Assembly (NCBI GenBank): GCA_023663185.1
Contig: JAMPHY010000001.1
Coordinates: 133,287-197,286 of the forward strand
From: Clostridiales bacterium
GTDB taxonomy: Bacteria > Bacillota > Clostridia > Lachnospirales > Lachnospiraceae
DNA: 64,000 bases
Reading direction: 5' to 3'
Below the pieces are notes generated by a model. The model was not told where the DNA came from, did no database searches, and saw nothing but the letters and a program-made list of their open reading frames with translations. Each line of letters opens with the position of its first letter. Position 1 is the first letter of the stretch. Of the stretch, positions 2,982 to 61,531 are shown piece after piece. The position numbers and the translations under genes were made by a program.

Positions 2982-3413
2982 ATGATAGGATTCTTTATCG
3001 CTCTTCTTTCGGGAGCGCTTATGAGTATTCAGGGAGTTTTTAATACGCAGGTTACTAAGTCGTCAAGTATCTGGGTGGCAAATGTTTTTGTACAGTTTAC
3101 GGCGCTTTTGGTCTGCCTGTGCGCGTGGCTTGTCACAGACCGTTCTTCTTTTGGCGCGCTGTTTAAGGTGCAGCCTAAATATATGCTGCTTGGCGGAGCT
3201 ATAGGGGCGTTCATTACCTATACCGTTATTAAAGCGATGGACGCGCTCGGACCTGCTAAGGCGGTTATGCTTATAGTCATTTCGCAGCTTATCGTCGCAT
3301 ATTTGATAGAACTGTTCGGGCTTTTTGGTACGGAAAAACAGCCTTTGGAGATGCGTAAGATTATCGGTATGGGAATTGCCATTGTAGGAATCGTTATTTT
3401 TAAGTGGACATAA
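2982..3413 (+). CDS. small DMT-superfamily membrane protein (DUF606/YdcZ-like)
   Basis: 143 aa, four to five hydrophobic helices, EamA-half-like layout. Confidence 0.55.
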   Translation: MIGFFIALLSGALMSIQGVFNTQVTKSSSIWVANVFVQFTALLVCLCAWLVTDRSSFGALFKVQPKYMLLGGAIGAFITYTVIKAMDALGPAKAVMLIVISQLIVAYLIELFGLFGTEKQPLEMRKIIGMGIAIVGIVIFKWT

Positions 3414-3497
3414 GGGAAAATTTATTTTAAAATAGAAATACGGTGCATAGCGGGGACTTCCTAAGTCTCTCATTGGTATGAGGGACGGAAAGGAACT

Positions 3498-5029: not shown

Positions 5030-6506
5030 ATTAAAGAGTTTAAAAAAGCTGCAATTCTTACGCAGCCTTAAGATACGTATATTTCTAATTGCATTTTTAA
5101 TAGGCTTCTTGTCCTGCAATATGATGAGATATGCTATTTTGCAGAATTATGAGCAGCGGGCAGTCAGCCTGCGTATTTCTGATGTTCAGACACAGATGAA
5201 TATTCTTGCTAACCACCTTATTAATTACCGCTATTTACAGGGAACGGCGTCCGAGGCTATCGAGGCGGAGCTTAGTATGCTTTCAGATTTGTACGACGGG
5301 CGTGTTCTGATTATCAATAATAATTTAAGGGTAATCAGGGATACATACGGTATCAGCGAGGGCAAAACCATCATATCGGAGGAAGTTATCCGCTGTCTCA
5401 AGGGCAATAATATCAGCAATTATGATTCTGAGAATAATTTTATCGAAATGACTGTGCCGATTGTAGAAATAGTGGAAACAAATAAGGAGGGCGCAGACTC
5501 TAAAAATCTTGAACATGAATATTCTGCGCGCGGCGTTATGCTAATTAGCGTCTCAACAGATTATATTGCTACGACAATGGACATTTTGAACAGAAAAGCT
5601 ATTGTTATGGAAGTTATAATTATTCTGTTCATGTTTGCCGCCTCAATTATCGCCGCCTTTATTATTGTCAGACCGTTTGAAAAGATTACGGCGGCTCTAA
5701 GCCAAGTAAAAGCGGGTTATAGCAATGAGCCGATTTCTGTGACCGATTGTTTGGAAACGGAGCATATCGGTGATGCGTTTAACGAAGTTATTAGTCGTAT
5801 GAAGGTGCTGGACGATTCAAGACAGGAGTTTGTGTCCAATGTCTCACATGAACTGCGCACCCCGATTACGTCCATTAAGGTGCTTGCCGATTCCCTGCGT
5901 GTTCAGGAAGATGTTCCGATAGAGCTGTATAAAGAGTTTATGGAAGATATCGCTAACGAAATAGACCGGGAAGACGAGATAATTAACGACCTTCTCGCCC
6001 TGATTAAGATGGATAGAACAGACGCTGACCTTAATATATCGCAGGTTGATATCAATGCGCTAGTAGAAGTCATTATGAAAAGGCTCCGTCCGATAGCACT
6101 GAAAAAAGATGTTGAGCTTGTCTATGAGAGCGTAAGACCTGTGGTGGCGTCTGTGGACGAAGTGAAAATTACGCTTGTAATTACGAATTTAGTCGAAAAT
6201 GCGATTAAATATAATAAAGAGCATGGCTGGGTTAAGGTTACGCTTGATGCGGACCATCAGTTCTTTTCCATAGTAGTTGCAGATTCCGGAATAGGTATTC
6301 CGGGGGATTCCATAGAGCATATTTACGAGCGTTTCTATCGGGTTGATAAGTCGCATTCTAAGGAAATCGAAGGCACGGGGCTTGGGCTTGCGATTACGAG
6401 AAGCGCGATACTTAAGCATAGGGGTTCGATTAAGGCGGTCAGCGAAGAAGGGGAAGGGACGACGTTTATTGTGAAGATTCCGTTGACTTATATTGCGGTT
6501 TCGTAG
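5022..6506 (+). CDS. sensor histidine kinase (TM-sensor-TM-HAMP-HisKA-HATPase)
   Basis: H-box FVSNVSHELRTP; N-box NLVENAIKYN; G-boxes DSGIGI and GTGLGLAI. The track ORF starts at 4962 inside the RR gene, so the TTG at 5022 overlapping the RR stop is preferred. Confidence 0.8.
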   Translation: MRKLKSLKKLQFLRSLKIRIFLIAFLIGFLSCNMMRYAILQNYEQRAVSLRISDVQTQMNILANHLINYRYLQGTASEAIEAELSMLSDLYDGRVLIINNNLRVIRDTYGISEGKTIISEEVIRCLKGNNISNYDSENNFIEMTVPIVEIVETNKEGADSKNLEHEYSARGVMLISVSTDYIATTMDILNRKAIVMEVIIILFMFAASIIAAFIIVRPFEKITAALSQVKAGYSNEPISVTDCLETEHIGDAFNEVISRMKVLDDSRQEFVSNVSHELRTPITSIKVLADSLRVQEDVPIELYKEFMEDIANEIDREDEIINDLLALIKMDRTDADLNISQVDINALVEVIMKRLRPIALKKDVELVYESVRPVVASVDEVKITLVITNLVENAIKYNKEHGWVKVTLDADHQFFSIVVADSGIGIPGDSIEHIYERFYRVDKSHSKEIEGTGLGLAITRSAILKHRGSIKAVSEEGEGTTFIVKIPLTYIAVS

Positions 6507-26500: not shown

Positions 26501-27247
26501 TTATGTCAGCGCCTTATAAGAAGTTTTGTAGGCAGTAGGTGTAAGTCCCACATATTTTTCAAAGGATTTTATGAAATGGCTTTGATCACAAAAACCGGTG
26601 TTCAGAGCCACTTCTGTTATATTGTCAATCTTGCTTAACATGTGTTGTGCTTTACGAACACGGTTCTGAATTAGAAATTGATGCGGCGTTAAACCAACAG
26701 CTTGTTTAAAGCTTCTGATAAAGTGATACTTGCTAATGTACAAAGAATGTGCCATTTCGTCAATACTTAACTTCATTTCGGGATAACGTTCTATCTGTTT
26801 TTGCGCTAAATCAATAAATGGTTCCGCAGAATCCGGAAATAAAATACTATCGCATGAGTCCAAGCAATTTAATAATTGCAATATCTGTATATCGGTTAGT
26901 TTAGGCTCAGGTATAGAAGATAGTAAATGGAAAATATTATTTTTGATTTTGTCCTTACTATATTCCTTTATGACATTTTTATTGATACATAATGTCAATA
27001 GTGAGTACGGATTTTGAGCCTTAATTATGTGCGGTACATATGGCGGAATAGTAAAAGAATTGCTTTTTTCACAGATAGAAGAATTATCACCAATAGTCAA
27101 AAGGATTGAACCGCATAAAACTAAGCCGATAGTGAGAACCGAAACATGATTATGCAGCGGATATGAAATTACGGAATTATTGCAAACTATCAATTCAATA
27201 TTGGCGTTTTTGTCGTACATATATTGAATATTGTTTACTTTTCGCAT
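26501..27247 (-). CDS. AraC-family transcriptional regulator (cupin-like N-terminus)
   Basis: C-terminal double HTH: SIDEMAHSLYISKYHFIRSFK...ITEVALNTGFCDQSHFIKSFEKYVGLTP. Confidence 0.85.
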   Translation of the reverse strand: MRKVNNIQYMYDKNANIELIVCNNSVISYPLHNHVSVLTIGLVLCGSILLTIGDNSSICEKSNSFTIPPYVPHIIKAQNPYSLLTLCINKNVIKEYSKDKIKNNIFHLLSSIPEPKLTDIQILQLLNCLDSCDSILFPDSAEPFIDLAQKQIERYPEMKLSIDEMAHSLYISKYHFIRSFKQAVGLTPHQFLIQNRVRKAQHMLSKIDNITEVALNTGFCDQSHFIKSFEKYVGLTPTAYKTSYKALT

Positions 27248-27422
27248 AGTGGCTGCTCCCTGTTTGAGTGTTTTGGAAATTATATCATGAAAGTATAGAA
27301 AATAAAAGGTATTAGAACTCTCAAAACAGTTGCTATTTTGGCACTGTTTAAGTATACTAAATGTAGGTTAATACCATTGGCTTAGGCATAGATAATCTCA
27401 TACTTTAATAGGGGTAATTCTA

Positions 27423-27731
27423 ATGATAATAGAAGGAAATCCAAAAGAAATCGAAGCTATGGAAGAATTTCATAAAGGAAATCGGCAAAAAGGACTTGAA
27501 CTTCAGGAAGAATTTGCCGCCAAGTTTCGTGAAGAATATAAGGAAAAAGACCATTGTCCATGTCAAAAAGCGTGTAGATACCACGGTAATTGCAAAGAGT
27601 GTGTCGCAATCCATAGAGCACATCAGGAACATGTACCGAACTGTATGCGTTCCATGATAAATTCAAAAATTAAGCTGCTGTCGGAATTAACGGAGCATAC
27701 GATAGCGCGAGAAATAGAGGCGCCGATGTAA
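27423..27731 (+). CDS. small Cys/His-rich protein (putative metal-binding)
   Basis: HCPCQKACRYHGNCKECVAIHRAHQEHVPNC cluster. Confidence 0.5.
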   Translation: MIIEGNPKEIEAMEEFHKGNRQKGLELQEEFAAKFREEYKEKDHCPCQKACRYHGNCKECVAIHRAHQEHVPNCMRSMINSKIKLLSELTEHTIAREIEAPM

Positions 27732-27849
27732 TTACATAATATGACAATCGGCAGAGCCAAAACTGCTATTTTCTGCAAAAAATAACCGCTTTCTGCAAGG
27801 AATATTGCTATTTTTTGAAAGTATGGTATTATCAAAATAATAGCAGGGG

Positions 27850-28614
27850 GTGATTAATGTGAAAATTCAACAAACTTTTTGTTGTCAAAGCGCTAATTTT
27901 TTGAATATGTCAGAAAGGCATAGAATAGAAAAATCAGACGAAGGGTTAAAGGCATTACGAGAGAGAGTAAACGAATTAAAACCTGAGTCAGATGATATCG
28001 ATTTTGATAAACTGCATCCGGTAGAAACAAACGAGGTTGAATTTGAACATTACATGAAAATGATGCATTTGAGTAGTTTGACTTTGGGAGAAGGCGGAGA
28101 CTATGATGTTGTTGATGTAATGAATTCTATCATGGAAACTTATGAAACTCTATATAATCAGATTGTAGAGGAACATGAATATGGAGACCGTCAGGTTTCA
28201 TACTATATTTCGGGTGCCAGATCATTAACTCTTGAGGAGGATTTAGCAGGACTGGAAAAAGCGTTTGAAAGGCGGTTAGATGACTTAGAGGGGTATATTA
28301 CATGTAGGCAAACAAATAAAGCATTTGCGAATCAGGGCTATGATGGCTGGCTTGACCGTAGAATAAATAACACGATAGATTTTCAAAGCACGCAAAGAAA
28401 AAGCAAAGCAGCAAAACATGATGATTATAATTATCTTGATGATGAATACATTGATACGGCTGTCGCAATGATGAAATTGGCTCGCGAGAACTTTTTGGTA
28501 TTATTTGATAGTAAAAACTACATAAAGGGAGCAGCAAATGGTATAATTTCAGATATTATGAATAAAAATGCTGATTTTATGGCAAAAACTAAAAAGTTGT
28601 TTTCTAAGGATTAA
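27850..28614 (+). CDS. hypothetical acidic protein
   Basis: ORF follows an AGGGGG RBS. The start is ambiguous (GTG 27850 or GTG 27859). No motif recognised. Confidence 0.5.
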   Translation: MINVKIQQTFCCQSANFLNMSERHRIEKSDEGLKALRERVNELKPESDDIDFDKLHPVETNEVEFEHYMKMMHLSSLTLGEGGDYDVVDVMNSIMETYETLYNQIVEEHEYGDRQVSYYISGARSLTLEEDLAGLEKAFERRLDDLEGYITCRQTNKAFANQGYDGWLDRRINNTIDFQSTQRKSKAAKHDDYNYLDDEYIDTAVAMMKLARENFLVLFDSKNYIKGAANGIISDIMNKNADFMAKTKKLFSKD

Positions 28615-28641
28615 TATGTGGGAAATCCGATAGGGAAAAGT

Positions 28642-28690
28642 CCTCTTGAATTAAACTACGCTTTGATTCAAGGGGATATTTTTTGTTTTT
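28642..28690 (+). terminator. rho-independent terminator
   Basis: CCTCTTGAAT / ATTCAAGGGG stem followed by ATATTTTTTGTTTTT. Confidence 0.55.
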
Positions 28691-28783
28691 CTGATATTTA
28701 GTTGACTAATGCGCTAAAGAAAAATAAAGTATAAAATATAAGAGGAGACTGCTGTTAAATGGCAGGAAAAGAGGAGAAAACAG

Positions 28784-29509
28784 ATGTTCAAAATTGCAAT
28801 ATGTGATGATGAAAATCTTTTTACAGAAGAACTAAAAGAAATGCTCTCCGGCTATATGATGGAAAAAGGTCTTGTTTTTGAAATAGATACATACAGCTCC
28901 GGAGAGGCATTGGTAGAATTGGGGCTTGAGGTAGTAAAATATACCGTCATATTTTTAGACATAAACATGGAGAAAGTTGATGGCATCAAGGCAGCAGAAA
29001 AGATTAGAGAAGTAAGCAGGGAAGTGTTTATCGTATTTGTGACTGCATATGTGGACTATTCGCTGGAAGGATACCGGTTAGATGTTGTAAGGTACTTGCT
29101 AAAGAGCAATGCCAACTTTCAGAGCAAAGTTAATGAATGTATGGATGCCATTATTGATAAAATGAATTATTCCGTGACAAAAAGGGAATTTGATTTTAAG
29201 GAAGGCAGAAAAGAAATATCACTGGAAAGATTATTGTATATTGAGAGCAATCTGCATATACTTGAGTTTCATGTTATGGAGGATGATATGAAAGTCTATA
29301 CCATGTATGAAACATTAAATGTATTTGAAACCAGACTGGCAGAGAATAATTTTATAAGGATACATCAGAGTTACCTTGTGAATGCAAAACATATCAGGAA
29401 TGTAGTACGTTGCAAAGCGATATTGACAAACGGGGTTGAGTTATCCATACCGAAAGCAAGGTATACAGCAGTCAAGAATAAGTTTATAGCGTGTCGGGGA
29501 GAAGTGTAG
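28784..29509 (+). CDS. LytTR-family response regulator (AgrA-like)
   Basis: Receiver (ICDDE, FLDINM) plus LytTR domain (FIRIHQSYLVN). Confidence 0.85.
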   Translation: MFKIAICDDENLFTEELKEMLSGYMMEKGLVFEIDTYSSGEALVELGLEVVKYTVIFLDINMEKVDGIKAAEKIREVSREVFIVFVTAYVDYSLEGYRLDVVRYLLKSNANFQSKVNECMDAIIDKMNYSVTKREFDFKEGRKEISLERLLYIESNLHILEFHVMEDDMKVYTMYETLNVFETRLAENNFIRIHQSYLVNAKHIRNVVRCKAILTNGVELSIPKARYTAVKNKFIACRGEV

Positions 29510-30808
29510 ATGTTTGTTTTAATGCGGAATGTATTATTAATATTTATTGAAGTAACATGTTGTAGTATTTTTTTTGAAACTTTTGGTGAAATACGGCGTA
29601 AAGGCTGGATTAATTTAATACAGGGGCTACTATTGTTTGGCAGTATGTGTTTTTATTCATATGGCTTATCTGAACATTTTGTACTAAGGCAGATTGTTGC
29701 GATTTTGGTATTTTCAGTATTTATGCTTTGGCATGTTAAAATCAGTTTGAAAAAATCTTTTGCCTTGGCAATACTATTTGATGCATTGCTGTTGGCAATG
29801 GATTGTCTGATTTATTTGATTAGCAGATGGTTTTCTTTAAGCAGCGAATCATTAGGAACGCAGTATGCAATTGGACTTACTTTTGTCTCTTTGCTGGCAA
29901 AGGTTATATTGTTTTTTATTGTTCTTATTATCAGAAAACAGTTTGGTAAAAAATCAATGGAAATAATGCTGGATACAGAGTGGTTAAGGCTTCTATTCTT
30001 TCCGGTCTTTACCATAGCAGCCATTTCAGCAATGCTGCCTGTTTTTGGACATATGCAGACAATAGAACAAGCGAATCTATTGTCAATCATTACATTTGGA
30101 ATGGTGGTAATGAATATCGTTGTGTTTTATTTAATTAACGATATTTTAGAAAGAGAAGCACAGATGCGTGAAAACAAGGTTTTACAGATTCAGGCGAAAA
30201 ACCAGTTGGAAATGTATAGGTCTATCTCTGAAAACTTTGATAACCAAAAAAGAAAGACGCACGAATATAAAAATCAGATTTCATGTATAGAATCTTTGCT
30301 GAACAAAAAGCAATATTTTAAATTAGAAGAATATGTAAAAAAGATTTATGGTTCTCTGAATAATGAACCGGACGCCATTAACACCAATAATGTAATAGTA
30401 AATGCCATACTTAATACAAAGTATCAGGAGGCAGAAGCAAAGGGAATTGTTTTTGTTTTCAGGGTAAATGACCTTTCAGGGCTGAAAATAAAAGATGAAG
30501 ATGTGGTTACTATCCTTGCAAACCTTCTGAACAATGCCATTGAAGCGTGTGAGACCTGTGAGGATAAAAAGGTAATCAAGTTCAAGTTCGTTAAAGAAGA
30601 TGATATGATAATCGTTGCTGTAAAAAATACATTTAATTATGATGTTATATACGAGAATGGAGAGATAAAATCTACGAAAACATCAAGTGTGTCTGAGCAT
30701 GGTGCAGGAATTAAGAATGTATTAAAAATCGTTGAGAAATATGGTGGATCATATGTCATTGAAGATAAGAATAAAGAATTTTTCTTTTCAATTATCATTC
30801 CTGCATGA
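29510..30808 (+). CDS. AgrC-like (HPK10-type) membrane histidine kinase
   Basis: Six or more N-terminal TM helices; H-box-like KRKTHEYKNQISC; NLLNNAIEA N-box; EHGAGIKN G-box; ATG abuts the RR stop. Confidence 0.75.
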   Translation: MFVLMRNVLLIFIEVTCCSIFFETFGEIRRKGWINLIQGLLLFGSMCFYSYGLSEHFVLRQIVAILVFSVFMLWHVKISLKKSFALAILFDALLLAMDCLIYLISRWFSLSSESLGTQYAIGLTFVSLLAKVILFFIVLIIRKQFGKKSMEIMLDTEWLRLLFFPVFTIAAISAMLPVFGHMQTIEQANLLSIITFGMVVMNIVVFYLINDILEREAQMRENKVLQIQAKNQLEMYRSISENFDNQKRKTHEYKNQISCIESLLNKKQYFKLEEYVKKIYGSLNNEPDAINTNNVIVNAILNTKYQEAEAKGIVFVFRVNDLSGLKIKDEDVVTILANLLNNAIEACETCEDKKVIKFKFVKEDDMIIVAVKNTFNYDVIYENGEIKSTKTSSVSEHGAGIKNVLKIVEKYGGSYVIEDKNKEFFFSIIIPA

Positions 30809-30916
30809 ATGTAGTGTAAAATGATTGGTTCTAAAATTATAAAGTCCCATTTTTTGTACATCATATCTGCTATCATGTTTATAACATATCAATTCAACTC
30901 AATCAAAAACTTAGTA

Positions 30917-30965
30917 TTGCATAAATCGAACATTTGTTTTATTATATAAATAGAACATCTGTTCT
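30917..30965 (+). promoter_or_regulatory. promoter with two LexA-box-like (GAAC-N4-GTTY) sites
   Basis: TTGCAT (30917-22), 17-bp spacer, TATTAT (30940-45). CGAACATTTGTTTT (30927-40) lies in the spacer and AGAACATCTGTTCT (30952-65) just downstream. Confidence 0.45.
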
Positions 30966-30986
30966 GATTTAAGAACGGAGGCATTA

Positions 30987-31361
30987 ATGAAAAGGAAGAA
31001 TTTTTTAATGACAATTACTACCATCTTTCTTGTTTTCGTAATTGTATTCTGCCATGCGGAAACGGTGATGAGCCAGAACAAAATAGGAGATACGCAGGTC
31101 CGTCGATATTATGACGCTATGGAGGAAGAGTACCGTGCTAATATCGCGGAGGCGCTTAAAGAGAGAGGCTTTGCGAACAGCGGCGTTAATATCAGATGGG
31201 TGTCGGACGGTGACGGAATCAGGACTTACACCATAATAATCCATCATAGCGGCATTAATATGTTGGATAATCAGGGCAGAGAAGAATTGTTAAAGGAGTT
31301 TGCTAAGTTCGAGTTTGCAGACGAGGAATGCAGCTTTAATTATGAGTTTTTGAAAATATAG
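30987..31361 (+). CDS. hypothetical secreted/anchored protein (124 aa)
   Basis: N-terminal hydrophobic signal/anchor ITTIFLVFVIVFCHA; GGAGG RBS. Confidence 0.55.
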   Translation: MKRKNFLMTITTIFLVFVIVFCHAETVMSQNKIGDTQVRRYYDAMEEEYRANIAEALKERGFANSGVNIRWVSDGDGIRTYTIIIHHSGINMLDNQGREELLKEFAKFEFADEECSFNYEFLKI

Positions 31362-48469: not shown

Positions 48470-50245
48470 TTATTTATCATTAAAAATAAGTTCAATAATC
48501 TTACTTATATATGTTAGGTTAGCAATATCGCCTTCGGGCCATTGACGCGATGTTTCGCTTTTCTTATAGTAAGCAATATACCCTTCATGGTTCTTTAAGC
48601 CCATCTTGTAAATCAATGCCACTTTTACATCATGCTTTGTCAAATAATTATAGGTCTGCGGACACAACTGCTTTATCACATCAACTTTGTCGATTACTGC
48701 CATGCCATGCTCATTATAAAGGTGGGCGAAGTTTTCCTCATTCACGTAATCGACAGATGCTTCGGCAGGAGCATCCTGTCCGGTGGCGCTCCAGTGGTTT
48801 TCCATTGTAAGCTTTTGCACATCGCCATAGAATAAATAAATCTCATCTAAATCAAAAGCGCCGCCAATGTCCCTAAGTATCATACTAAAAGTAATTCCGG
48901 TTTGATGCGTCAGATATTCCAGCATTTTTAGGACAAGCTGCTGTTTGTTCTTTTTTTGTCCGGAATTTACGGGCAGACTTACCGGAGCGTTTTCAGAAAG
49001 CACATCTCCGTGGACAGCTTGTTCATAAATAATATAACGGTTTTTGCCCTTATGTTTAGCGCGATAGAGCATTTTATCAGCAATTCTAAATAAATCGTCA
49101 TAGTTAAGCGCGTCGGTAGGATAAGTTGACACGCCGATAGAACAGGTTACTTTTGGCACGTCTTTACGTTCCTTATATGCCCATTCCACATTGTTTCTGA
49201 CGCTGCGTAAGATCCCACGCAGGTCGGAAAGATAGTTTACGCCCTCCAGAACGATAAATATCTCATCTCCGCCGATTCTGCCTACCAGACCGTTGCCGGC
49301 AACCGTCTCTTTTACGATTTCGGATACGGTGGCAAGAACTTCGTCACCCACCAAATGTCCCAAAGTATCATTAACCTGTTTGAAATTATCAATATCCAAT
49401 ATACAGATATTGATATTATGCTTCGGCTTACGATGTAAAAGATTTTCCGTATACTCGATAATCGTCTTTTTGGTAAGAAGTCCGGTTGTTACGTCTTTAT
49501 CGTAATCGCTGTGCAGGTATTCGCTCCTGACGGAACCGGAATTGTCCAGACATTGAATACAGCCGATAACAATAGGCTCATTATGTGAGTTCAAAATGGT
49601 CCGTCCTTTTATAAAATGAATATCACGTTCAGGATTTATGGATTTATCCAGAAAAAGCAGTTTATGCTCAAAATTCTTGGTTCCGTTGGCAATATTTTCA
49701 TATAAATCATTAAAGTCAGGAATATGTTCCTTTTTTACGAGTTCTTTTCCCAGCATGACCTCGCGGAATTTGCCAAGCGTTCCCCGGAAAGAGAAAATCC
49801 TGTTTAAACGCCCGCCGTTAAAAATCTGAAAATAGTCTCGTTTTTTATCATATAAGAAAAGATATTCTTTCCAAATATCCAGAAATTCGTCGCAAATATG
49901 GTTTTCATCATAGAGAGAGTCAAGATTTTGGGCAAGACTATCTATATCCAAAATTTTGATTTCGATAAAATCTTTTTCCTCGTCTTCAAGAGAAAATTTG
50001 GAAAACTCGGTCAAAACATGGTGATACTGCTTATCTACAGACAGTAAACGAATTACAAGCATGGTGGAGTTATCAAAACCAAGCTGTGTAAGCGCTTTTT
50101 TTAGCGGCTCTAAATCTTCCGGGTGTATGTTTTCAGCAAGAGACGCATAATTTTCAAAACCTATGTATTCATAAAAGGTCTTATCAGCCCTGATAATCTG
50201 CAGCCTTTCATCAATAGTAGCAGTGATATTATATAAATTCGCCAT
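48470..50245 (-). CDS. GGDEF-domain protein (putative diguanylate cyclase) with N- and C-terminal uncharacterised domains
   Basis: ILDIDNFKQVNDTLGHLVGDEVL ... GRIGGDEIFIVLEG. Confidence 0.8.
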   Translation of the reverse strand: MANLYNITATIDERLQIIRADKTFYEYIGFENYASLAENIHPEDLEPLKKALTQLGFDNSTMLVIRLLSVDKQYHHVLTEFSKFSLEDEEKDFIEIKILDIDSLAQNLDSLYDENHICDEFLDIWKEYLFLYDKKRDYFQIFNGGRLNRIFSFRGTLGKFREVMLGKELVKKEHIPDFNDLYENIANGTKNFEHKLLFLDKSINPERDIHFIKGRTILNSHNEPIVIGCIQCLDNSGSVRSEYLHSDYDKDVTTGLLTKKTIIEYTENLLHRKPKHNINICILDIDNFKQVNDTLGHLVGDEVLATVSEIVKETVAGNGLVGRIGGDEIFIVLEGVNYLSDLRGILRSVRNNVEWAYKERKDVPKVTCSIGVSTYPTDALNYDDLFRIADKMLYRAKHKGKNRYIIYEQAVHGDVLSENAPVSLPVNSGQKKNKQQLVLKMLEYLTHQTGITFSMILRDIGGAFDLDEIYLFYGDVQKLTMENHWSATGQDAPAEASVDYVNEENFAHLYNEHGMAVIDKVDVIKQLCPQTYNYLTKHDVKVALIYKMGLKNHEGYIAYYKKSETSRQWPEGDIANLTYISKIIELIFNDK

Positions 50246-50411: not shown

Positions 50412-50846
50412 TTACTCTGTCCAGTGCTCAAGCTCATCAACCGAATAGGCGCTTGTCCAGTGATAAGGCTGTAATTCCTTTAATTCTACAAATTTAATTT
50501 CATTATCTGTGGTTGTTACCGCGACCTGCACATCTTCACCCCAATAGCGCAGTCTTTCCTGACAAATTCCGCAAGGCGACAACACCCTGTATGGAGAGTC
50601 CTCATCATCTCGGACAAGGCACATACAATGCGTCACTTTTTCATTGTATTTGTGGGCTTCAAGCATGGCTCCAAGCTCAATGCACACGACTGCGGACGCA
50701 TTGGCAGTCTCAATGGAGACGCTTGTATAGTAATTCCCTTTGGAAGTGTGGACGACTCCTGCACCGCCCCAGCCGACAGGATACCTTGTTTCTATCAGCG
50801 TGGCAGCTCTTTTATACATTTCGTTTTCTATTTCGTGATATCTCAT
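50412..50846 (-). CDS. cytidine/blasticidin-S deaminase-like zinc enzyme
   Basis: VCIELGA (C-x-E) and SPCGICQERL (PCxxC) zinc and catalytic motifs. Confidence 0.7.
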   Translation of the reverse strand: MRYHEIENEMYKRAATLIETRYPVGWGGAGVVHTSKGNYYTSVSIETANASAVVCIELGAMLEAHKYNEKVTHCMCLVRDDEDSPYRVLSPCGICQERLRYWGEDVQVAVTTTDNEIKFVELKELQPYHWTSAYSVDELEHWTE

Positions 50847-52046: not shown

Positions 52047-52322
52047 ATGGCAACAACTAATATAACGATGCGAATGGATACAGGGGTAAAAGCTCAGTTG
52101 CAGGAGTTAATGTCTGAACTTGGGTTAGATATGACAACCTTTTTTACTATGGCGGCAAAACAGGCAATCAGAGAGCAAAGAATACCATTTGAGATTTCAA
52201 GAGATGTTCCTAATGCGGAGACAATTGCGGCTATAGAAGAGGTTAAAATGATGAAACAGAATCATTCTATTGGTAAATCTTATACGGATATTGATAAAAT
52301 GATGGAGGAATTATTGCTATGA
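52047..52322 (+). CDS. dinJ: type II antitoxin, RelB/DinJ family
   Basis: MATTNITMRMDTGVKAQLQEL...MTTFFTMAAKQAIREQRIPFE. Confidence 0.8.
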   Translation: MATTNITMRMDTGVKAQLQELMSELGLDMTTFFTMAAKQAIREQRIPFEISRDVPNAETIAAIEEVKMMKQNHSIGKSYTDIDKMMEELLL

Positions 52323-52434
52323 TTTATACCGTAAAAAACTGGCAAATGGCGAACAATTACCAGAGAAGAATAAAGACCATTCTCTCAGTGGCGATTACAT
52401 TGGATGCAGGGAGTGTCATATTACACCAGATTGA
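52319..52434 (+). pseudogene. decayed yafQ-family toxin remnant
   Basis: Begins MIYTVK, then in the +1 frame reads KLANGEQLPEKNKDHSLSGDYIGCRECHITPD* (stop 52432-34). The N-terminal FKKDY block and the C-terminal WLLIY..THSDLF half are missing. Confidence 0.6.
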
Positions 52435-52893
52435 TTATACAACATCAATCCAAATGCCAATATCCCTCATTTCAGAGTTGGAAACACTCTTATAAAAGCG
52501 CTGTGCTTCTTCGTTGGCGGCGGTCAAGGCAACCAGTGTGTTAATATGCCTGTCTTTTAGAATTTTCAGTAAAGCTTCTAACAATCGTTGCGCTACCCCT
52601 TGGTGTCTACTGCTTTTTATAACGCAAATCCAATCAAGATATGCCTTTTTTGAACCGTCAAAGCGGCTTGCAATAAGTGAGGCATCAATCCGACCAATAA
52701 CCGCACTATCATTATATGCCAGCAGAGAAACAGAGTCGTCGAAACTCTTGTCTTCAAAGCTCTTTTCTACAGCATTAATATAGGCGTGATTGATTTCCCA
52801 GCCCCAGAAATTTTCCTCTTCGCGTAATCTTCTCTCAAAATCCAAGACGTCAGGTATTTTATCCTTTGTATAAGTTTGAATTTCTAACTTCAT
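52435..52893 (-). CDS. GNAT-family N-acetyltransferase
   Basis: ICVIKSSRHQGVAQRLLEAL acetyl-CoA-binding (Q/RxxGxA) motif. Confidence 0.8.
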   Translation of the reverse strand: MKLEIQTYTKDKIPDVLDFERRLREEENFWGWEINHAYINAVEKSFEDKSFDDSVSLLAYNDSAVIGRIDASLIASRFDGSKKAYLDWICVIKSSRHQGVAQRLLEALLKILKDRHINTLVALTAANEEAQRFYKSVSNSEMRDIGIWIDVV

Positions 52894-53819: not shown

Positions 53820-53855
53820 GGGGCTGTCGCACTAAGTACTTAGTGCGACAGCCCC
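53820..53855. repeat. perfect 36-bp palindrome just 3' of tRNA-Leu(AAG)
   Basis: GGGGCTGTCGCACTAAGT|ACTTAGTGCGACAGCCCC, no mismatch and no loop. Confidence 0.85.
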
Positions 53856-53869
53856 ATACTTTAATCAAC

Positions 53870-53953
53870 TGCGGAAGATGGGACTTGAACCCACACGGTG
53901 TAACCACCACAAGATCCTTAGTCTTGCTCGTCTGCCAGTTCCGACACTTCCGC
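53870..53953 (-). tRNA. tRNA-Leu, anticodon AAG (type II, long variable arm, no encoded CCA)
   Basis: Reverse complement is GCGGAAG-TG-TCG-GAACTGGCAGA-CGA-G-CAAGA-CTAAGGA-TCTTG-TGGTGGTTACACCGT-GTGGG-TTCAAGT-CCCAT-CTTCCGC-A. Confidence 0.8.
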
Positions 53954-54042: not shown

Positions 54043-54072
54043 TTTACAATTCTTTTAAAAAAATGGTATAAT
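54043..54072 (+). promoter_or_regulatory. putative promoter of the GTPase operon
   Basis: TTTACA (54043-48), 18-bp spacer, TGgTATAAT (54064-72). Confidence 0.45.
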
Positions 54073-54110
54073 TAAAAATACTATTATACAGTATTATAAG
54101 GGAGATTATA

Positions 54111-55334
54111 ATGTTTTGGAAGAAAAGACACAAAAGCATTAATAAATATACCATAGAGGATATTGATATTTTAGTTTTGGGTAATAGAGGTTCGGGTAAG
54201 ACCAGTCTGCTGGCTACTACGCTTTATAATATGAATGAATCATTGCAGACAAACGGCGTAGTTTTTGAACCGGCAGACGAGGAAACTGATAAGCGGTTAA
54301 AAAATTCTATATCTGAAATAGAGAATATGTTTACTTCGAAAGGCAGCGTTGAGGTCGGAGAGGGAATTGCGGGCACAGATGGTTTTATTGATTACAGTTT
54401 TCGAATGACATTTACAGATGAATTATGGAATACGGAATCTGATTTTAATATTGTATTTCATGATTATGCAGGTAGTGTACTAGCAAATGGTGATAGGGAT
54501 AAACAGTATGAAGAATTAAAAAAGTGGTTTTTGAAATCAAGAATTGTCTATATTCTCATTGATACACCATACCTCATGGAATCAACAAGAAAGACTATTG
54601 CAGAATATAGTGCTAAAGATGAAATTTTGACACTGCTTCAAAGGACAGGCACTGATAGTACCGATAAAATGATAGCTATTGTTCCAACAAAGTGCGAGTA
54701 TTATTTGCGTAATTCCAGGACTACAGATATAATAGATCATATAAGGTCAGAATTTAAGGAGATTTTATCTTATGCGGGACAGTTAAATAAAACTGAGTGT
54801 AGGGAAAAATATAAATTATATATTACGCCTGTACAGACTGTTGGGGGATTGGAATTTAGTAAAATGGAGATTAAAGAAGGTAGGCAAATTGCTTCATTCA
54901 GGCGAACGAAACCAAATTCTCAGTTTAAACCTGTAAATACGGATTTATTGCTTTTGTTCTGTATGGATTATTTGTTTGACTGTTTTTTTAAACAGTTGGC
55001 AGTACAGGTTAAACCTAAAAATAGGAAGGCAGTTATGGGATTAATGTCAGAGCTGGATGAGGAAAATGTTCTCGGTAGCTATATGGAAAAGCATGAGAAT
55101 TATATTTCAGCAAAGAAAAATAAGGATGAAGCAGAACAAGAAGCAAGGGAAATATTTAAGGATGCGCTTTATAGCTTCTTTTCAGAATATGATAGAAGGG
55201 AATCAAAAATAGAGAAAATTTGTAAGGTATATGAGGATATACAAAATTGTTATATTGTATATAGTAGTAAAAAGAAACTGGAGAAAAATTGGGAAAAACG
55301 GTTTCGACAGCAGTTTACCCGGTTATATTTATAA
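54111..55334 (+). CDS. divergent P-loop (TRAFAC-type) GTPase with K/E-rich helical C-terminus
   Basis: AAGGGAG RBS; G1 GNRGSGKTS (aa 24-32); G3 DYAG (118-121); G4-like TKCE (193-196). Confidence 0.6.
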   Translation: MFWKKRHKSINKYTIEDIDILVLGNRGSGKTSLLATTLYNMNESLQTNGVVFEPADEETDKRLKNSISEIENMFTSKGSVEVGEGIAGTDGFIDYSFRMTFTDELWNTESDFNIVFHDYAGSVLANGDRDKQYEELKKWFLKSRIVYILIDTPYLMESTRKTIAEYSAKDEILTLLQRTGTDSTDKMIAIVPTKCEYYLRNSRTTDIIDHIRSEFKEILSYAGQLNKTECREKYKLYITPVQTVGGLEFSKMEIKEGRQIASFRRTKPNSQFKPVNTDLLLLFCMDYLFDCFFKQLAVQVKPKNRKAVMGLMSELDEENVLGSYMEKHENYISAKKNKDEAEQEAREIFKDALYSFFSEYDRRESKIEKICKVYEDIQNCYIVYSSKKKLEKNWEKRFRQQFTRLYL

Positions 55335-55350
55335 TTTTTTGGAGGTCTAG

Positions 55351-56094
55351 ATGCAGATATATATTAAAAGTGCGGGATTTTCTGTGAATCAGGATTATTC
55401 ATGGATAGATCAGAGTGGGAAGAATGTAGATATAGATTTATCGATATTATGTTATAATGTTGATGACGTTAAATTTGTTTGGAAAGGTACAGGAGAGGCA
55501 ATCTATATATTTGGAAATGCTTTTACGGATAAGAGCAGGACAGATTTGTATAACAGACCGTTAAGAAACTACATATTGTTGGTAGGACAGATTGATGATG
55601 CGGTGGCTATGTCTGAGCGTTTTGAAAAGATGCTGCTGGATCAGAAAAATTTTGAAGAATTGTTAAATAGCAGTATAAGAAATGAGAGCGGCGACTCAAC
55701 AGTAGGTTTTTCTGTTGACTTTCAGAGAATAAGAATATATTTGGATTCCAGTTTGCCTAATAATAGAGAGGCACGTAAGCTAAAACGCCGTTTATATGAG
55801 AAAGATTCTTATGAGGCAAGGCAGAGATTGCTGGATGAACTTTGGAATATACGACAGAAACCTATTACTTTGTTGGTTGGTGGTGAATTGTCTGACAGTC
55901 GTATGCAGACAATTGCTCCGGATAGAGCATTATTAGATTATATTGAGGATACTAGATATGCAGAAACCAAGAGGTCAAGAGTAGTAGAATCTTATACATC
56001 ACGTATGGATATAATAACTGTGGCGACAGCTATTGGAGCAGTTGCAATGACAGCTTTGGTTTTAGCTATGGTTTTACCCAAAAAACAAGACTGA
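55351..56094 (+). CDS. tail-anchored membrane protein, unknown family
   Basis: GGAGG RBS; single C-terminal TM helix IITVATAIGAVAMTALVLAMVLP then KKQD*. Confidence 0.55.
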   Translation: MQIYIKSAGFSVNQDYSWIDQSGKNVDIDLSILCYNVDDVKFVWKGTGEAIYIFGNAFTDKSRTDLYNRPLRNYILLVGQIDDAVAMSERFEKMLLDQKNFEELLNSSIRNESGDSTVGFSVDFQRIRIYLDSSLPNNREARKLKRRLYEKDSYEARQRLLDELWNIRQKPITLLVGGELSDSRMQTIAPDRALLDYIEDTRYAETKRSRVVESYTSRMDIITVATAIGAVAMTALVLAMVLPKKQD

Positions 56095-56115
56095 TAGTGA
56101 ATTTGGAGGCGGCAA

Positions 56116-58002
56116 ATGATAAATGATGTAGATGCAATACGGAAAGAATTGGAAAATCTGGTAGATTTTTATGAAAATAAAAACTTACAGTCCTTAACAT
56201 ATAATAAATGTTTTAAAAAAACGGTTGATATGCTGGACAGAGCTAAAAGAGAATTTGATTCGAGCCTGTTCTTCATTTTGATGTTTGGACCTTTAAAGGC
56301 AGGAAAATCTACATTGACCAATTTGCTTGCGAGAGAATATGTAAGTCCTACTGGTTTTGGGATTGAAACAACACTCAGACCGTCTATTATTATGAAAAGT
56401 TGTACAAAAGAATACGTGATTGATGTGTATGAAATAGTAGATGCAAAAGATGATAAAGAAGAGCTGTTTAATTTGGTAATGGATGTTCTACGTGGTATTT
56501 TGGATTTTCAGGCTATAAGGTCAAGAATACGTAAAGTGACTATTCCACTGACACAGCCAAACGTAGAAGCTCGGTTGATTCGATATTTGGACTGCGAACC
56601 GTTGGTTACGGTTCTGAACGTACCTGGTGGAGATTTGATAACAGAGCATATTGCTTTAATAGATATGCCTGGGTTGGATGGAATTAAATCTAACTGGGAA
56701 GATTCTGTTGTACATAAATGGATTTTAAAAAGAGCGGACTTTTTGATTTTTATCCAAAGTTCGATGGCTGCATTAAATAAGGCCACTTTTGAATTTTTGC
56801 AAGATGCTTATTTGGGAAGTCGAAAACCACCATTATGGTTAGTACAAAACATTATTGATGCAAAATATTGGCGTAGTGATGAGGACAGACGTTCTGACAA
56901 TGATACACAGCGTAGGAGCGCAAAAGAACATATATCCAGTTTGCTGGGGATTTCAGAAGATTTGCGGAGTACGGCTATCAATCTTGGAAAAGCCTCTGAT
57001 GGAATGAGTACCGATAATTTTAATTATTTGTTGAAAGAGTCAGGGTTTATTGAATTTGAAAATAACTTGAAGGATATATTAAATGAGAGCCGTATTCGTA
57101 TCCAGCAGGAGAATAGCGTAAAAGGGGTATTGAATGCTATTCATAATTGTAATTATGAGTTTGAAGATTATAGGAAAGAATTGGGAAACATCTTTGTAGA
57201 GTATGATGAACGGATAAAAAAACTTGCAGAGCCACAAAATATTCTTGATGTTATGTGTAAGATTATTAGACCTGAAGCGATTAAATTGCAGTTAGAAAAC
57301 ATACTTAGAGAATATGTGGAAGAATGGAAGAAACAATGCTATCATTATTTGGACAAGGACATACTATCCAGAGGTTTAAGTAATAATATAACTAAGGAAG
57401 AACTACAGAGAAAGATTGATAATATAGTAGATGATATCAATACTTCACGTAAGGAGGATTATTTAGAGAATTCTTATAAATTCAAGCAAGAGATTAATGG
57501 AATTGCAAAACAATATATATGCGATTTACAGAGCGATAGTTTTATAAGATTAAATGATTCTTTGACTGAGATAGGTATAAAACCTTTTGATAGTGAATTT
57601 TGCTTTGAACCACAGTTGGAAGTGCCACAATTTAGTATTACATCTCATGTCTCCAATATTATAAAAAAGATAACTGGATTTAATATAAAATTTGTTGGGA
57701 AAAGGGAAGAAAAGATAGACAAAAATATTTTTGAATTGTGCAAGGTGCTTAGAAGTGAATATGAAGAATATGCTGATAAGCTTCTTAAGAAAATGACTTC
57801 TGAAATATCAGGAGAATTTGATGTTTGGATACAGCATTCTTATAGGGAGGTATTGTGGGAGTATCTGAATGAACAGACAGAGTATAAGAAACAGGAAATT
57901 TTGCAAGAAAAAGATAGGATTGAAGACACGTTGGCATATATTGAACAGTTGGAAAAAATGTGTGCTAATCTGGAACAATTTATAAAAAAGAATAGTATAT
58001 AA
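56116..58002 (+). CDS. bacterial dynamin-like GTPase
   Basis: GGAGG RBS; G1 GPLKAGKST (58-66); G2-like ETTLRPS; G3 DMPG (183-186); about 400-aa helical stalk-like C-terminus; canonical N/TKxD not evident (NIID). Confidence 0.6.
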   Translation: MINDVDAIRKELENLVDFYENKNLQSLTYNKCFKKTVDMLDRAKREFDSSLFFILMFGPLKAGKSTLTNLLAREYVSPTGFGIETTLRPSIIMKSCTKEYVIDVYEIVDAKDDKEELFNLVMDVLRGILDFQAIRSRIRKVTIPLTQPNVEARLIRYLDCEPLVTVLNVPGGDLITEHIALIDMPGLDGIKSNWEDSVVHKWILKRADFLIFIQSSMAALNKATFEFLQDAYLGSRKPPLWLVQNIIDAKYWRSDEDRRSDNDTQRRSAKEHISSLLGISEDLRSTAINLGKASDGMSTDNFNYLLKESGFIEFENNLKDILNESRIRIQQENSVKGVLNAIHNCNYEFEDYRKELGNIFVEYDERIKKLAEPQNILDVMCKIIRPEAIKLQLENILREYVEEWKKQCYHYLDKDILSRGLSNNITKEELQRKIDNIVDDINTSRKEDYLENSYKFKQEINGIAKQYICDLQSDSFIRLNDSLTEIGIKPFDSEFCFEPQLEVPQFSITSHVSNIIKKITGFNIKFVGKREEKIDKNIFELCKVLRSEYEEYADKLLKKMTSEISGEFDVWIQHSYREVLWEYLNEQTEYKKQEILQEKDRIEDTLAYIEQLEKMCANLEQFIKKNSI

Positions 58003-58123
58003 GATATAGGCAATTAGAATAAATTGCATAGGCTTGGCGGTGATAGCGATTAGTGCAAGTTTTATGTGCAAAGACGGATGTAGAATTGTGTAGATTAAGA
58101 CGATTAAAAATCCATAGTAAACA

Positions 58124-58158
58124 AAAATGCAGACTAGTATTAGTAGTTTGCATTTTTG
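58124..58158 (+). terminator. rho-independent terminator of the GTPase operon
   Basis: AAAAATGCAGACT / AGTTTGCATTTTT stem (one G:T pair) with a T-run. Confidence 0.65.
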
Positions 58159-58283
58159 CTTATTATATGCTTCAAAATTAACACATGAAAAATTCTTTTG
58201 AAATTGTGTTACAACCCGCCAATATTTGACTTACATATCATATTATGGTAAGTTAATCCGGTAGGCTGGATAATTGAGAAGGA

Positions 58284-59480: not shown

Positions 59481-61310
59481 ATGGGGGTTAGAGAAGTGAA
59501 TGAGGTAAAGAATGAGAACACAACAAAGTGGTCAAAAAGCATCGCGACTGTTCTTGTAGCGGTTGTCTTTTGCATGATTGCGTGTACGGTGATTGTTCTT
59601 GGCTTTCTGGGAATCTCTTTCCTAAGAAGGTCTATGAATGAAAGTCTTACAAGTTATGAAGCGACTATGTATGACGGATACAGACGGGAGATTAAATCTG
59701 AAATCCAGACGTCGATTGCGATTATCCAGTCATATTATGACCGCAGCCAGTCCGGTGAATTGACCGAAGAAGAAGCAAAAGAGATGGCGAAGGAAGACAT
59801 ACGTTACATGCGCTATCGAGATGACGGTTCGGGGTATATGTGGATTGACGATACGGATTACAATCTGGTAATGCATCCTATTCTTCCGGAGCAGGAAGGC
59901 AATAACCGCTATGATTTGACGGACCAGAACGGAGTCAAGATTATCCAGAATATTATGAAAAGCGCCAATGAAGGCGGGGGGTATAACGAATTTTACTTCA
60001 CGAAGGCTGACGGCGTAACGGTAGCGCCCAAGCTTGCCTATTCGGAGAAATTCGACGCATGGAACTGGGTTGTAACGACGGGCAACTATACCGATGATAT
60101 GGACGCGGAAATTGCAGTAAATGAGCAGTACATAACACAGCAGTTCACTACTATGCTTACAGCATATATCGGCAGCATTATAGTAATTCTGATAGTGGTG
60201 CTGGTTATTTCCATATACTTCGGCAGACGTCTTGCAGGTGGAATTAAGCGGATTGAAGCTAATCTTCGTAAAATTGAAGAGGGCGACCTTTCCTTTGAAA
60301 TTGAACCTAAGTTAATCAAGCGTTCTGATGAAATTGGAAAGATTGCGCAGTCGCTTAATCAGGTCAAGCTAGCCTTAGCGGGAATGATTGGCGACGTCAG
60401 CGATTCCAGTCAGAAGCTTAAAAAGAGCAGCGGTGATTTCAGTGAGAAATTCAGCGATATTACCGCAAGTATAAATGATACGAACCGCGCTGTTGATGAG
60501 ATGGCGAAGGGAACCGCAAGTCTGGCGGCGGAGACAGAGGTTGTTAATGATAAAGTCCAGAAGCTTGGCGAGGTAATTGATGTAGAAAATCAGGAGATGA
60601 GTAAACTTGGAACTTCGGTAGATACGATGATGCAGTTCTCGAACGGGGCTTCCGACAGCATTAAGAAGCTATATGAGATTACAGAAGTCACCACAGACGC
60701 TATTCAGGTAGTATCGGATCAGACGAAGCAGACTAATGATTCAGCGATACATATTAATGAAATGGTGGAAATTATTAAAGATATGGCTTCCCAGACGAAC
60801 CTGCTGTCGCTGAATGCAAGTATTGAATCCGCACGCGCAGGAGAAGCAGGAAGGGGCTTTGCCGTAGTTGCCGAAGAAATTCGTAAGCTTGCTGAGAAAT
60901 CGGCGGAGAGCGCAGCAGGCATTGAAGTTGTTGTTAATGAGCTGACTTCAAATGTGGAAGTTTCCAGCGAGAGAATGCAGTCGGTTATGGTAAATGTGGC
61001 GGAGCAGGAGAAGCAGCTTAGAGAAACCAAGACAGCTTTTGATAATCTGTATAAGGAAATCAGCCTTGTCGGTGATGTGGCTAAGGAGATTAACAGGCAG
61101 ACGGATATCTTAAATGAACTTAAAGGCGTGGTATCCGACTCAGTATCTAACCTTAGTAGTGTAGTAGAAGAAAATTCCGCTTCGGCGCAGGAGACAAGCG
61201 CAGGAATGCAGGTAGTAGCGGAATCTATTGACGAATGCTATCAGGATACAAGAATGTTAGTAGAACTCAGCGACAGTCAGAACGAGAAGACGCAGAGATT
61301 TAAATTGTAA
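59481..61310 (+). CDS. methyl-accepting chemotaxis protein (TM - Cache-like sensor - TM - HAMP - MCP signalling)
   Basis: GYMWIDD Cache-type motif; HAMP; [37 protein letters not shown]. Confidence 0.9.
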
Positions 61311-61432: not shown

Positions 61433-61516
61433 GCAGGAATGGCGGAATTGGCAGACGCGCACGGTTCAGGTCCGTGTGATAGCAATATCATGAGGGTTCA
61501 AGTCCCTTTTCCTGCA
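61433..61516 (+). tRNA. tRNA-Leu, anticodon CAG
   Basis: GCAGGAA-TG-GCG-GAATTGGCAGA-CGC-G-CACGG-TTCAGGT-CCGTG-variable arm-GAGGG-TTCAAGT-CCCTT-TTCCTGC-A. Confidence 0.9.
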
Positions 61517-61531
61517 CTAATTATACATAGG

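Follow-up and report, generated by a model that had tools for sequence, protein, structure and literature searches.

How are bacterial dynamins targeted, and how are they switched on? To our knowledge, these proteins are known almost solely as lone proteins or as dynamin-dynamin pairs, and we address this wider question through a three-gene operon from a Clostridiales bacterium (Lachnospiraceae) represented by a gut-type metagenome-assembled genome. The operon lies on contig JAMPHY010000001.1 of assembly GCA_023663185.1, within the 64,000-nucleotide (nt) stretch (positions 133,287 to 197,286) that was analysed as a whole and is referred to here as the window. It consists of three open reading frames (ORFs) on the plus strand, namely gene 1 (54111-55334, 407 amino acids (aa)), gene 2 (55351-56094, 247 aa) and gene 3 (56116-58002, 628 aa), all coordinates being those of the window. 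In this locus and in the wider family to which it belongs, a dynamin is genetically locked to a non-dynamin switch GTPase and to a dedicated single-pass membrane protein, an arrangement that would make the regulated recruitment of a bacterial dynamin directly testable. Every part belongs to or resembles a known superfamily; what is new is that the operon of a bacterial dynamin also encodes a switch GTPase that is not a dynamin, together with a membrane protein from a new family.

What kind of dynamin is encoded here? Gene 3 matches the Pfam Dynamin_N family well above threshold (E = 4.5e-14, 53.2 bits against a cut-off of 27), which bears out its initial annotation as dynamin-like, and across 22 homologues the G1 motif (GPxKxGKST) is invariant at G58, P59, K61, G63, K64, S65 and T66, as are the G2 threonine T86 and the G3 residues D183, P185 and G186 (DxPG). 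The G4 motif is unusual, reading QNIIDAKYW in place of N/TKxD, with N245 invariant in the same homologues. When the gene-3 family profile was compared with solved structures, it recovered mitofusin-2 (1.5e-7), mitofusin-1 and the Nostoc punctiforme protein NpBDLP (2j68, 1.1e-6), the mitofusin helical-bundle constructs aligning to residues 179-410; a sequence search of the PDB with gene 3 as a single sequence returned nothing. The PADLOC models for LeoBC (50.8 bits, 3.6e-14) and LeoA (30.9 bits, 3.7e-8) also match weakly, both aligning to residues 178-621. No transmembrane segment or hydrophobic paddle was found in gene 3, the 19-residue Kyte-Doolittle maximum being 1.15 against a threshold of 1.6, and with no hydrophobic segment it is taken to be soluble, a property also ascribed to LeoA and RdcA. 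On its sequence, gene 3 belongs to the mitofusin/BDLP class of bacterial dynamin-like GTPases and is a soluble member of that class.

Is gene 1 then a second dynamin? The initial annotation had likened the operon to sets of paired dynamins, namely LeoABC, IniA/IniC and DynA/DynB, and this analogy was wrong: gene 1 is not a dynamin but a TRAFAC GTPase at the edge of the DO-GTPase2 family (PF19993), YcjX-like and with a C-terminal helical domain. Its distant homologues (~320 aa) carry PF19993 in precomputed annotation, and its cyanobacterial and Bacteroidaceae relatives exceed the cut-off of that family, at 27.4-36.7 bits. The description of gene 1 as a divergent GTPase with G1, DYAG and TKCE motifs has held, and these motifs are invariant in its homologues: the P-loop at G24, G29, K30, T31 and S32, the Walker B/G3 motif FHDYAG at F116, D118 and G121, and TKCE as part of a conserved PTKCE at P192, K194 and E196, to which T243 and G245 are added. 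The AlphaFold2 model (predicted local distance difference test, pLDDT, 88.7) consists of a G domain followed by a helical domain at residues 277-401, and its top Foldseek match in the PDB is YcjX bound to GDPCP (6nz5; E = 8e-5 over 419 aligned columns), with a low TM-score of 0.33-0.36; further matches after YcjX are a Lokiarchaeal RagA-like protein, human RagD, G-alpha and mitofusin G domains. The P-loop (GxxGxGKT) and 'hhhhDYPGE' Walker B of YcjX align with the 'DYPGE' of distant gene-1 relatives. Gene 1 gave no match to the YcjX/DUF463 family in Pfam at E <= 1, a sequence search of the PDB with its profile yielded P-loop noise alone, and no hydrophobic segment was found in it. As a separate observation, a big protein collection holds genes 2 and 3 at 100% identity (metagenome-assembled genome (MAG) 'Clostridiales bacterium'; gene-2 locus tag NC433_00990) while its best match to gene 1 is only 80% identical, and the deposited MAG annotation may lack gene 1 or contain a different call for it.

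Gene 2 is a single-pass membrane protein of a very rare family that is new to Pfam, NCBIfam, PADLOC and PHROGs, none of which gave a family match for it (NCBIfam and PHROGs gave nothing useful for any of the three proteins). Two genes had been left unplaced by the initial annotation, and of these gene 1 now has a home among DO-GTPase2/YcjX-like proteins, whereas gene 2 still has no named family in those four collections. Its layout is a conserved cytosolic N-terminal domain of ~195 aa, a variable linker and a C-terminal transmembrane helix, the last being, as annotated, the single hydrophobic segment of the protein (residues 221-243, with 4 residues behind it). A profile search of 1.84 billion representative proteins gave a family of 35 members at E <= 1e-3, and in an alignment of divergent members G9 and R63 are invariant, with S7, Y16, W18, D65, N73 and L164 nearly so. 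Among 69 gene-2 relatives of related loci, 58 have a single transmembrane segment; tail-anchored proteins account for 30, and in 20 the chain extends for more than 60 aa outside the membrane. A database-wide search found that the C-terminal regions beyond the helix vary in distant relatives, with SH3_3, DUF6174 and a pilin-like domain represented.

The fold of the cytosolic domain of gene 2 is less readily placed. The AlphaFold2 model is usable for the N-terminal domain alone (block-mean pLDDT 59-95), and there the order of strands and helices is compatible with the longin order (beta-beta-alpha-beta-beta-beta-alpha-alpha). The best Foldseek match of the model, which is non-significant, is the Lst4 longin domain (E = 0.034, probability 0.85, TM-score 0.41). 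Other non-significant longin/roadblock matches lie at E 0.25-2, and the matches named are a Lokiarchaeal Roadblock-Longin protein, Sec22b, GATOR1, FLCN-FNIP2 and LAMTOR complex entries. A search of the PDB with the gene-2 profile found nothing, and Foldseek against viral structures gave no significant match. A longin-like fold, as suggested by the model, may be treated as a lead rather than a result.

Do these three genes belong together outside the window? Close homologues of genes 1, 2 and 3, which number 21, 22 and 22 clusters on shared contigs, always co-occur strictly as a trio and do so in unrelated flanks, and as all three proteins have homologues the genes are real. The ordered trio is intact in ten related loci (L001-L009 and L014) wherever the contigs suffice, L007 being cut at its contig end. 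It is flanked by an ATP synthase operon in L001-L004, follows a trehalase/AraC pair in L005-L007 and lies between flavodoxin-type and MarR genes (MarR/GSHPx) in L008 and L009, while L014 comes from a Eubacterium MAG. The initial annotation had asked for co-occurrence of the genes outside a fixed housekeeping context, and the strict trio in heterogeneous flanks is what such a comparison returned. In L008, a 294-aa ORF directly upstream of gene 1 (5112-5996 of that locus) has a weak match to a PD-(D/E)XK transposase family and is a possible trace of mobility.

The linkage extends well beyond these close relatives. Searching species genomes with the gene-1 alignment gave 117 relatives, from which 80 loci were kept, and all ORFs of all loci were scanned with hidden Markov models (HMMs) of the three families. 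The 80 loci are mostly from filamentous cyanobacteria (Oscillatoriales, Lyngbya, Coleofasciculus, Moorena and Tolypothrix), the remainder including Acrocarpospora, Bacteroidaceae, Lachnospiraceae, Verrucomicrobia and others. In 81 of 91 loci the gene directly after a gene-1-like gene is a gene-2-like one, and an ORF of 720-795 aa lies directly upstream in at least 70 of the 80, with 5 more masked by overlapping ORF calls and 2 cut by contig ends. All six of the upstream ORFs that were sampled match Dynamin_N (E 8e-9 to 3.5e-3), two of them above the Pfam gathering cut-off and four below it. A Bacillota-type metagenome contig (L013) has the same layout, as does a Nostoc megaplasmid on which each of the three genes carries the annotation 'hypothetical protein'; the module is present in two copies in some genomes, and some copies are carried on megaplasmids. 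In its general form a dynamin comes first, one to four DO-GTPase2-like paralogues come next and a single-pass membrane protein of the gene-2-like kind comes last, and the clade of the window is a rare offshoot of this wider module with a permuted gene order (GTPase, membrane protein, dynamin). The suggestion made initially, that the trio is a distant or new variant, therefore stands in so far as it is not canonical LeoABC/Eleos, but it is no isolated oddity. Taken together, this three-way, phylum-spanning gene linkage is very strong.

Is the dynamin of the window the same as that of the cyanobacterial modules? When the window-type and upstream-type dynamins were compared, the G domains alone aligned (hhalign probability 96%, columns 38-256), and a single dynamin subfamily for both was rejected on this ground. 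Two dynamin subfamilies thus fill the same slot, which makes the pair of genes 1 and 2 the constant core of the module and a dynamin its obligatory third part. A further pairing appears among distant gene-3 relatives (<=38% identity), which occur without genes 1 and 2 and have a DUF697 membrane protein as the next gene in 4 of the 5 loci examined: DUF697 follows this sister-clade dynamin in L010, L011, L012 and L096, and L097 ends right after the dynamin. DUF697 partners were found solely with the sister dynamin clade, and it follows from this pairing that soluble dynamins of this lineage are never without a membrane partner. There are therefore interlocking pairings of dynamin with DUF697, of YcjX with DUF697, and of dynamin with a YcjX-like GTPase and gene 2. 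In two sister-clade loci a gene for a dCMP/MafB19-type deaminase adjoins the dynamin (L096, 9590-10189; L097, 5454-5981), and in the window an ORF at 50412-50846 has a weak deaminase-domain match.

Expanded versions of the module exist in Bacteroidaceae and Lachnospiraceae, with three to four GTPase paralogues and M48 peptidases. In L058, a dynamin of ~790 aa precedes three DO-GTPase2 paralogues that are interspersed with proteins of ~285 aa and 350-405 aa of unknown family, the operon being flanked on both sides by M48-family peptidase genes, and similar expanded layouts are seen in L053, L062, L069 and L081 (these five loci representing Bacteroidaceae, Alistipes and Lachnospiraceae MAGs). 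In a Bacillota MAG (L028, 3476-7601), the core pair of gene-1-like and gene-2-like genes is tandemly duplicated directly after a 735-aa ORF of dynamin size.

At the level of DNA, does the trio behave as one unit? The three co-directional ORFs are separated by gaps of 16 nt (genes 1 and 2) and 21 nt (genes 2 and 3), and ribosome-binding sites read from the sequence precede each of them, GGGAG at 54100-54104 (6 nt 5' of the gene-1 ATG at 54111), GGAGG at 55341-55345 and GGAGG at 56105-56109, all on the plus strand. Upstream lies a sigma-70-type promoter on the same strand (54043-54072) with a -35 element TTTACA, an 18-nt spacer and a TGn-extended -10 element TATAAT, which matches the consensus at 11 of 12 positions plus the TG, lies 39 nt 5' of the gene-1 ATG and is the top score of a 4.9-kb promoter scan; promoter-like sites overall number 27 against 22.9 expected in that scan, so there is no enrichment. 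Downstream, on the plus strand, is a hairpin at 58114-58166 (core stem 58122-58158) of 15 pairs, with a folding energy of -22.7 kcal/mol and z = -5.65 against shuffled sequences. All of these elements had been put forward in the initial annotation, which the present analysis reproduces in full for the ORFs, their spacing, their ribosome-binding sites and the promoter; the hairpin is real but terminator-like rather than a textbook terminator, with few G-C pairs (4) and a T-run that lies partly within the stem. Gene order and signals fit a single transcription unit, and the trio is a three-gene, self-contained accessory operon.

The unit is, as first noticed by eye, AT-rich and divergent from a tRNA gene: its GC content is 0.336 against 0.406 for the window, the second lowest among 599 windows of the same size, and the neighbouring tRNA-Leu(aag) lies at 53870-53953 on the minus strand. 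A scan of the leader against Rfam found no family other than the tRNA, and no att-like direct repeats flanking the unit were found. An integration signature was rejected on the grounds that such repeats are missing and that the trio adjoins the 5' side of the tRNA-Leu, not its 3' end. Presence/absence polymorphism was sought by looking up the exact sequences of gene 3 and its flanking peptidase, neither of which gave a record. Just downstream of the tRNA is a G+C-rich minus-strand hairpin (53820-53855, 16 pairs of which 10 are G-C) that is probably its terminator, and a second tRNA-Leu (anticodon cag) is located at 61433-61517 on the plus strand, 3.4 kb downstream of the trio. Elsewhere in the window, a second AT-rich patch at ~26900-31000 reaches a minimum GC of 0.335 for a 4.1-kb window and contains ORFs at 27850-28614, 28784-29509 and 29510-30808.

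Do the neighbours reveal what the operon is for? On the tRNA side the window carries genes for HAD, GGDEF, deaminase, thioesterase, a RelB antitoxin with a remnant ORF, GNAT and peptidase S51 proteins, and on the other side an acyltransferase and a chemoreceptor. The RelB-family antitoxin gene (52047-52322; Pfam RelB, 5.8e-11) is overlapped by a 58-aa ORF (52319-52495) that looks short for an intact RelE/YafQ-type toxin, and the two may be a decayed toxin-antitoxin pair. Also nearby are a GGDEF diguanylate cyclase gene on the minus strand (48470-50245), ~4 kb upstream of the trio, and a gene for a methyl-accepting chemotaxis-type protein on the plus strand (59481-61310; identified by translation), 1.5 kb downstream. 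Both lie within 4 kb, which recalls the RdcA/RdcB-DgcE link and would fit an operon that works in signalling, with a soluble dynamin and its partners sensing GTP level or stress and docking on, and regulating, a membrane-bound target, be it an enzyme (for instance a diguanylate cyclase) or a receptor (for instance a chemoreceptor), with no remodelling of lipid. There is precedent in E. coli, where the soluble dynamin-like GTPase RdcA activates DgcE through the MASE1 domain together with the small operon partner RdcB (PMC6510439), and gene 3 likewise has no membrane paddle. We nevertheless regard this explanation as quite unlikely: neither neighbour is kept in other trio loci, RdcB is unlike genes 1 and 2, RdcA resembles gene 3 at the generic dynamin level only, and gene 2 already supplies a dedicated membrane partner.

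The neighbourhood also bears on whether the trio is a dedicated anti-phage or conflict system, in which gene 1 would act as a thresholding switch, a role that has been proposed for DO-GTPases, gene 2 as a sensor or anchor and the dynamin as an effector that traps or excludes phage components, delays lysis or protects the cell. DO-GTPases were defined as switches of conflict systems (PMC7159879), and dynamins have precedents in Eleos, which acts against jumbo phages, and in DynA, which delays lysis. The low GC of the unit, its rare and patchy distribution (a single close homologue among 185,579 species-representative genomes), flanks that vary between genomes, two copies in some genomes, the carriage of some copies on megaplasmids, and ectodomains of gene-2 relatives whose variability recalls an arms race all sit well with such a role. 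It remains that genes 1 and 2, like their cyanobacterial and Bacteroidaceae relatives, match no PADLOC model, that no copies were found in collections of phages and viruses, and that no toxic effector domain is present; the flanks in the window are metabolic and housekeeping genes with one RelB remnant rather than a defence island, and those elsewhere are heterogeneous. The anti-phage role and defence-island context suggested in the initial annotation thus gained no positive support, and we consider defence a possible function though on balance a doubtful one. Should the module nonetheless prove antiviral, it would be a new type of defence.

The flanks of the wider module were surveyed in the same respect. 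Among 137 flanking proteins from 45 loci, the sole recurrent defence-like family is Uma2 (8 of 137, a count without background control), a family that is abundant in cyanobacteria. Genes for Uma2-family putative endonucleases adjoin cyanobacterial modules, for example in L065 at 2985-3626, 8309-8869 and 8901-9461, and the top PADLOC matches among the 137 are PDC-S03 candidate-system models (<=6 members), which we suspect, but could not confirm, to be the same Uma2 proteins. With no control set, this defence-island test is weak or negative.

What, then, might the operon do? Both soluble GTPases have intact nucleotide-binding motifs, neither has a membrane element, and the gene-2 protein, with its single transmembrane helix, is the sole membrane-embedded member of the trio. 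From these sequence features we propose, with about an even chance of being right, that the trio would form a three-part GTPase machine at the membrane in which genes 1 and 2 decide when and where the dynamin engages. The cytosolic domain of gene 2 would dock and regulate gene 1 at the membrane, with the invariant R63 as a candidate residue for catalysis or for the interface; the switch GTPase would be gene 1, controlling recruitment or assembly of the dynamin; and gene 3, having no membrane-binding element of its own, would provide the mechanical output on the cytoplasmic membrane. There, the dynamin may remodel, seal or stabilise the membrane under envelope stress or in conflict, possibly including damage inflicted by phage, and a part in membrane stress has been considered for proteins of the DO-GTPase family (PMC11237479). 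Given the ectodomains that many gene-2 relatives carry, the module could perhaps read envelope or extracellular cues, in which case the clade of the window would have lost this part and kept the anchor. What we infer is that the three proteins interact physically, that control runs from genes 1 and 2 to gene 3, and what triggers the machine in the cell; the family assignments are established.

Several observations weigh against this proposal of a dynamin controlled by a membrane-docked switch. Gene 1 itself scores 26.0 bits against PF19993, just below the cut-off of 27; it lacks the Walker-B glutamate, reading DYAGS at a position that is variable across the clade; and its alignment to E. coli YcjX by hhalign is marginal, at a probability of 21%. 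For the cytosolic domain of gene 2, neither structural nor sequence comparison gave a significant relative (best Foldseek E 0.034), and for this reason the proposed regulatory role of gene 2 is drawn from its position and conservation alone. Lastly, membrane remodelling is not a necessary activity of soluble dynamins: RdcA signals to a diguanylate cyclase (PMC6510439).

If the module is a device for membrane repair or shaping, it would bear on thylakoid and envelope dynamics in filamentous cyanobacteria, into which the DO-GTPase2 family is here extended. A literature search found no paper linking DO-GTPases or YcjX-like GTPases with dynamins.

How does the module compare with systems already described? 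With the bacterial dynamin operons (Eleos/LeoABC, DynA, IniA/IniC, Cj-DLP1/2 and NpBDLP) it shares a Dynamin_N G domain, behind which a long stretch aligns with the helical parts of LeoBC, LeoA and mitofusin, as well as the presence of a second GTPase in the operon with gene 3. It differs in that this partner GTPase is a non-dynamin, in that gene 3 has neither a transmembrane segment nor a paddle and reads QNIID rather than N/TKxD at G4, and in its low Leo HMM scores. Eleos is defined by two consecutive dynamin-like genes (LeoA plus LeoBC), and here gene 3 alone matches the Dynamin_N and Leo models, the latter weakly, while gene 1 is DO-GTPase2-like; profile matches assigning all three genes to LeoABC/Eleos, against which the initial annotation had set its claim of novelty, did not appear. 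Nor is the defence-island setting that is frequent for Eleos seen, the flanks being ordinary in the window and heterogeneous elsewhere, as read without a background control.

The conflict systems built on DO-GTPases and GAP1 domains (Kaur, Burroughs, Iyer and Aravind 2020, PMC7159879) resemble the module in other ways: gene 1 and its relatives lie in or at the edge of Pfam DO-GTPase2, some relatives of the module have two to four paralogous GTPases per operon, and a co-evolving partner gene lies immediately downstream, often with a transmembrane segment and a variable ectodomain. The trio could on this basis be a canonical, described system, either Eleos/LeoABC, given the LeoBC and LeoA matches of gene 3, or a ternary DO-GTPase-GAP1 system, given the DO-GTPase2 match of gene 1 and a gene 2 placed directly downstream like a cryptic GAP1, some GAP1 proteins also having C-terminal transmembrane segments and ectodomains. 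We find this highly improbable. Eleos requires two dynamin genes and the trio has one; no match to Pfam GAP1-N, GAP1-M or GAP1-C was found for gene 2 or for its 42 relatives, the thresholds being E <= 1 for gene 2, E <= 0.1 for 33 family members and E <= 0.01 for 10 further downstream proteins; and the close-clade loci consist of the three genes only, with no extra conserved gene and no GASH, FNIII or variable effector component. In addition, the constant third component of the module is a dynamin, which Kaur et al. never mention, the module is abundant in cyanobacteria, where they report DO-GTPase systems to be nearly absent (PMC7159879), and gene 1 differs by its missing Walker-B glutamate. 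With one dynamin and with neither a GAP1 domain nor a GASH, FNIII or effector component in the close-clade loci, canonical membership of either system is essentially excluded.

RdcA/RdcB (YjdA/YjcZ) is similar in that a soluble dynamin-like GTPase and a small partner from its operon act on a membrane protein, and different in having no second GTPase and no transmembrane partner. Homology was rejected here, RdcB giving no match to the HMM of gene 1 and nothing better than E = 0.45 with that of gene 2.

A more distant likeness, by analogy only, is to the eukaryotic and Asgard pairs of Rag GTPases with longin/roadblock proteins. The gene-1 model matches Lokiarchaeal RagA-like and human RagD G domains, and gene 2 has longin/roadblock proteins as its top non-significant matches, a compatible order of secondary-structure elements and the invariant R63. 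Against this, the gene-2 matches fall below significance (best E = 0.034, TM-score <=0.41), there is no sequence relationship, and GTPase-activating or guanine-nucleotide exchange activity for gene 2 would come from the analogy alone. Genes 1 and 2 might be a bacterial counterpart of pairs of small GTPases and longin-type platforms (Rag-Ragulator, the GATOR1/FLCN GTPase-activating complexes and MglA-MglB), in which an anchored platform with R63 would set the nucleotide state of a GTPase that in turn recruits and activates the dynamin, a speculative extension that we think improbable. On that reading the trio would amount to a prokaryotic 'GTPase cascade to dynamin' with the logic of membrane trafficking, encoded by a three-gene module that is unannotated yet conserved across filamentous cyanobacteria, Actinobacteria, Bacteroidota and Firmicutes.

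Finally, YcjX-YcjF resembles the module in that a membrane-protein partner is encoded immediately behind a TRAFAC GTPase bearing a helical domain. Gene 1 finds its best structural match in YcjX (6nz5), and YcjX shares its P-loop and hhhhDYPG(E) motif with gene-1 relatives. The differences are that ycjXF is without a dynamin and that gene 2 shows no DUF697 match, its HMM likewise not matching YcjF. In E. coli, YcjX, a stress-induced GTPase, is operonic with the DUF697 inner-membrane protein YcjF, and DUF697 proteins are also the partners of the sister clade of gene 3. The module connects three gene sets that have so far been treated separately, namely the YcjX/DO-GTPases, the DUF697 partners and the dynamins.

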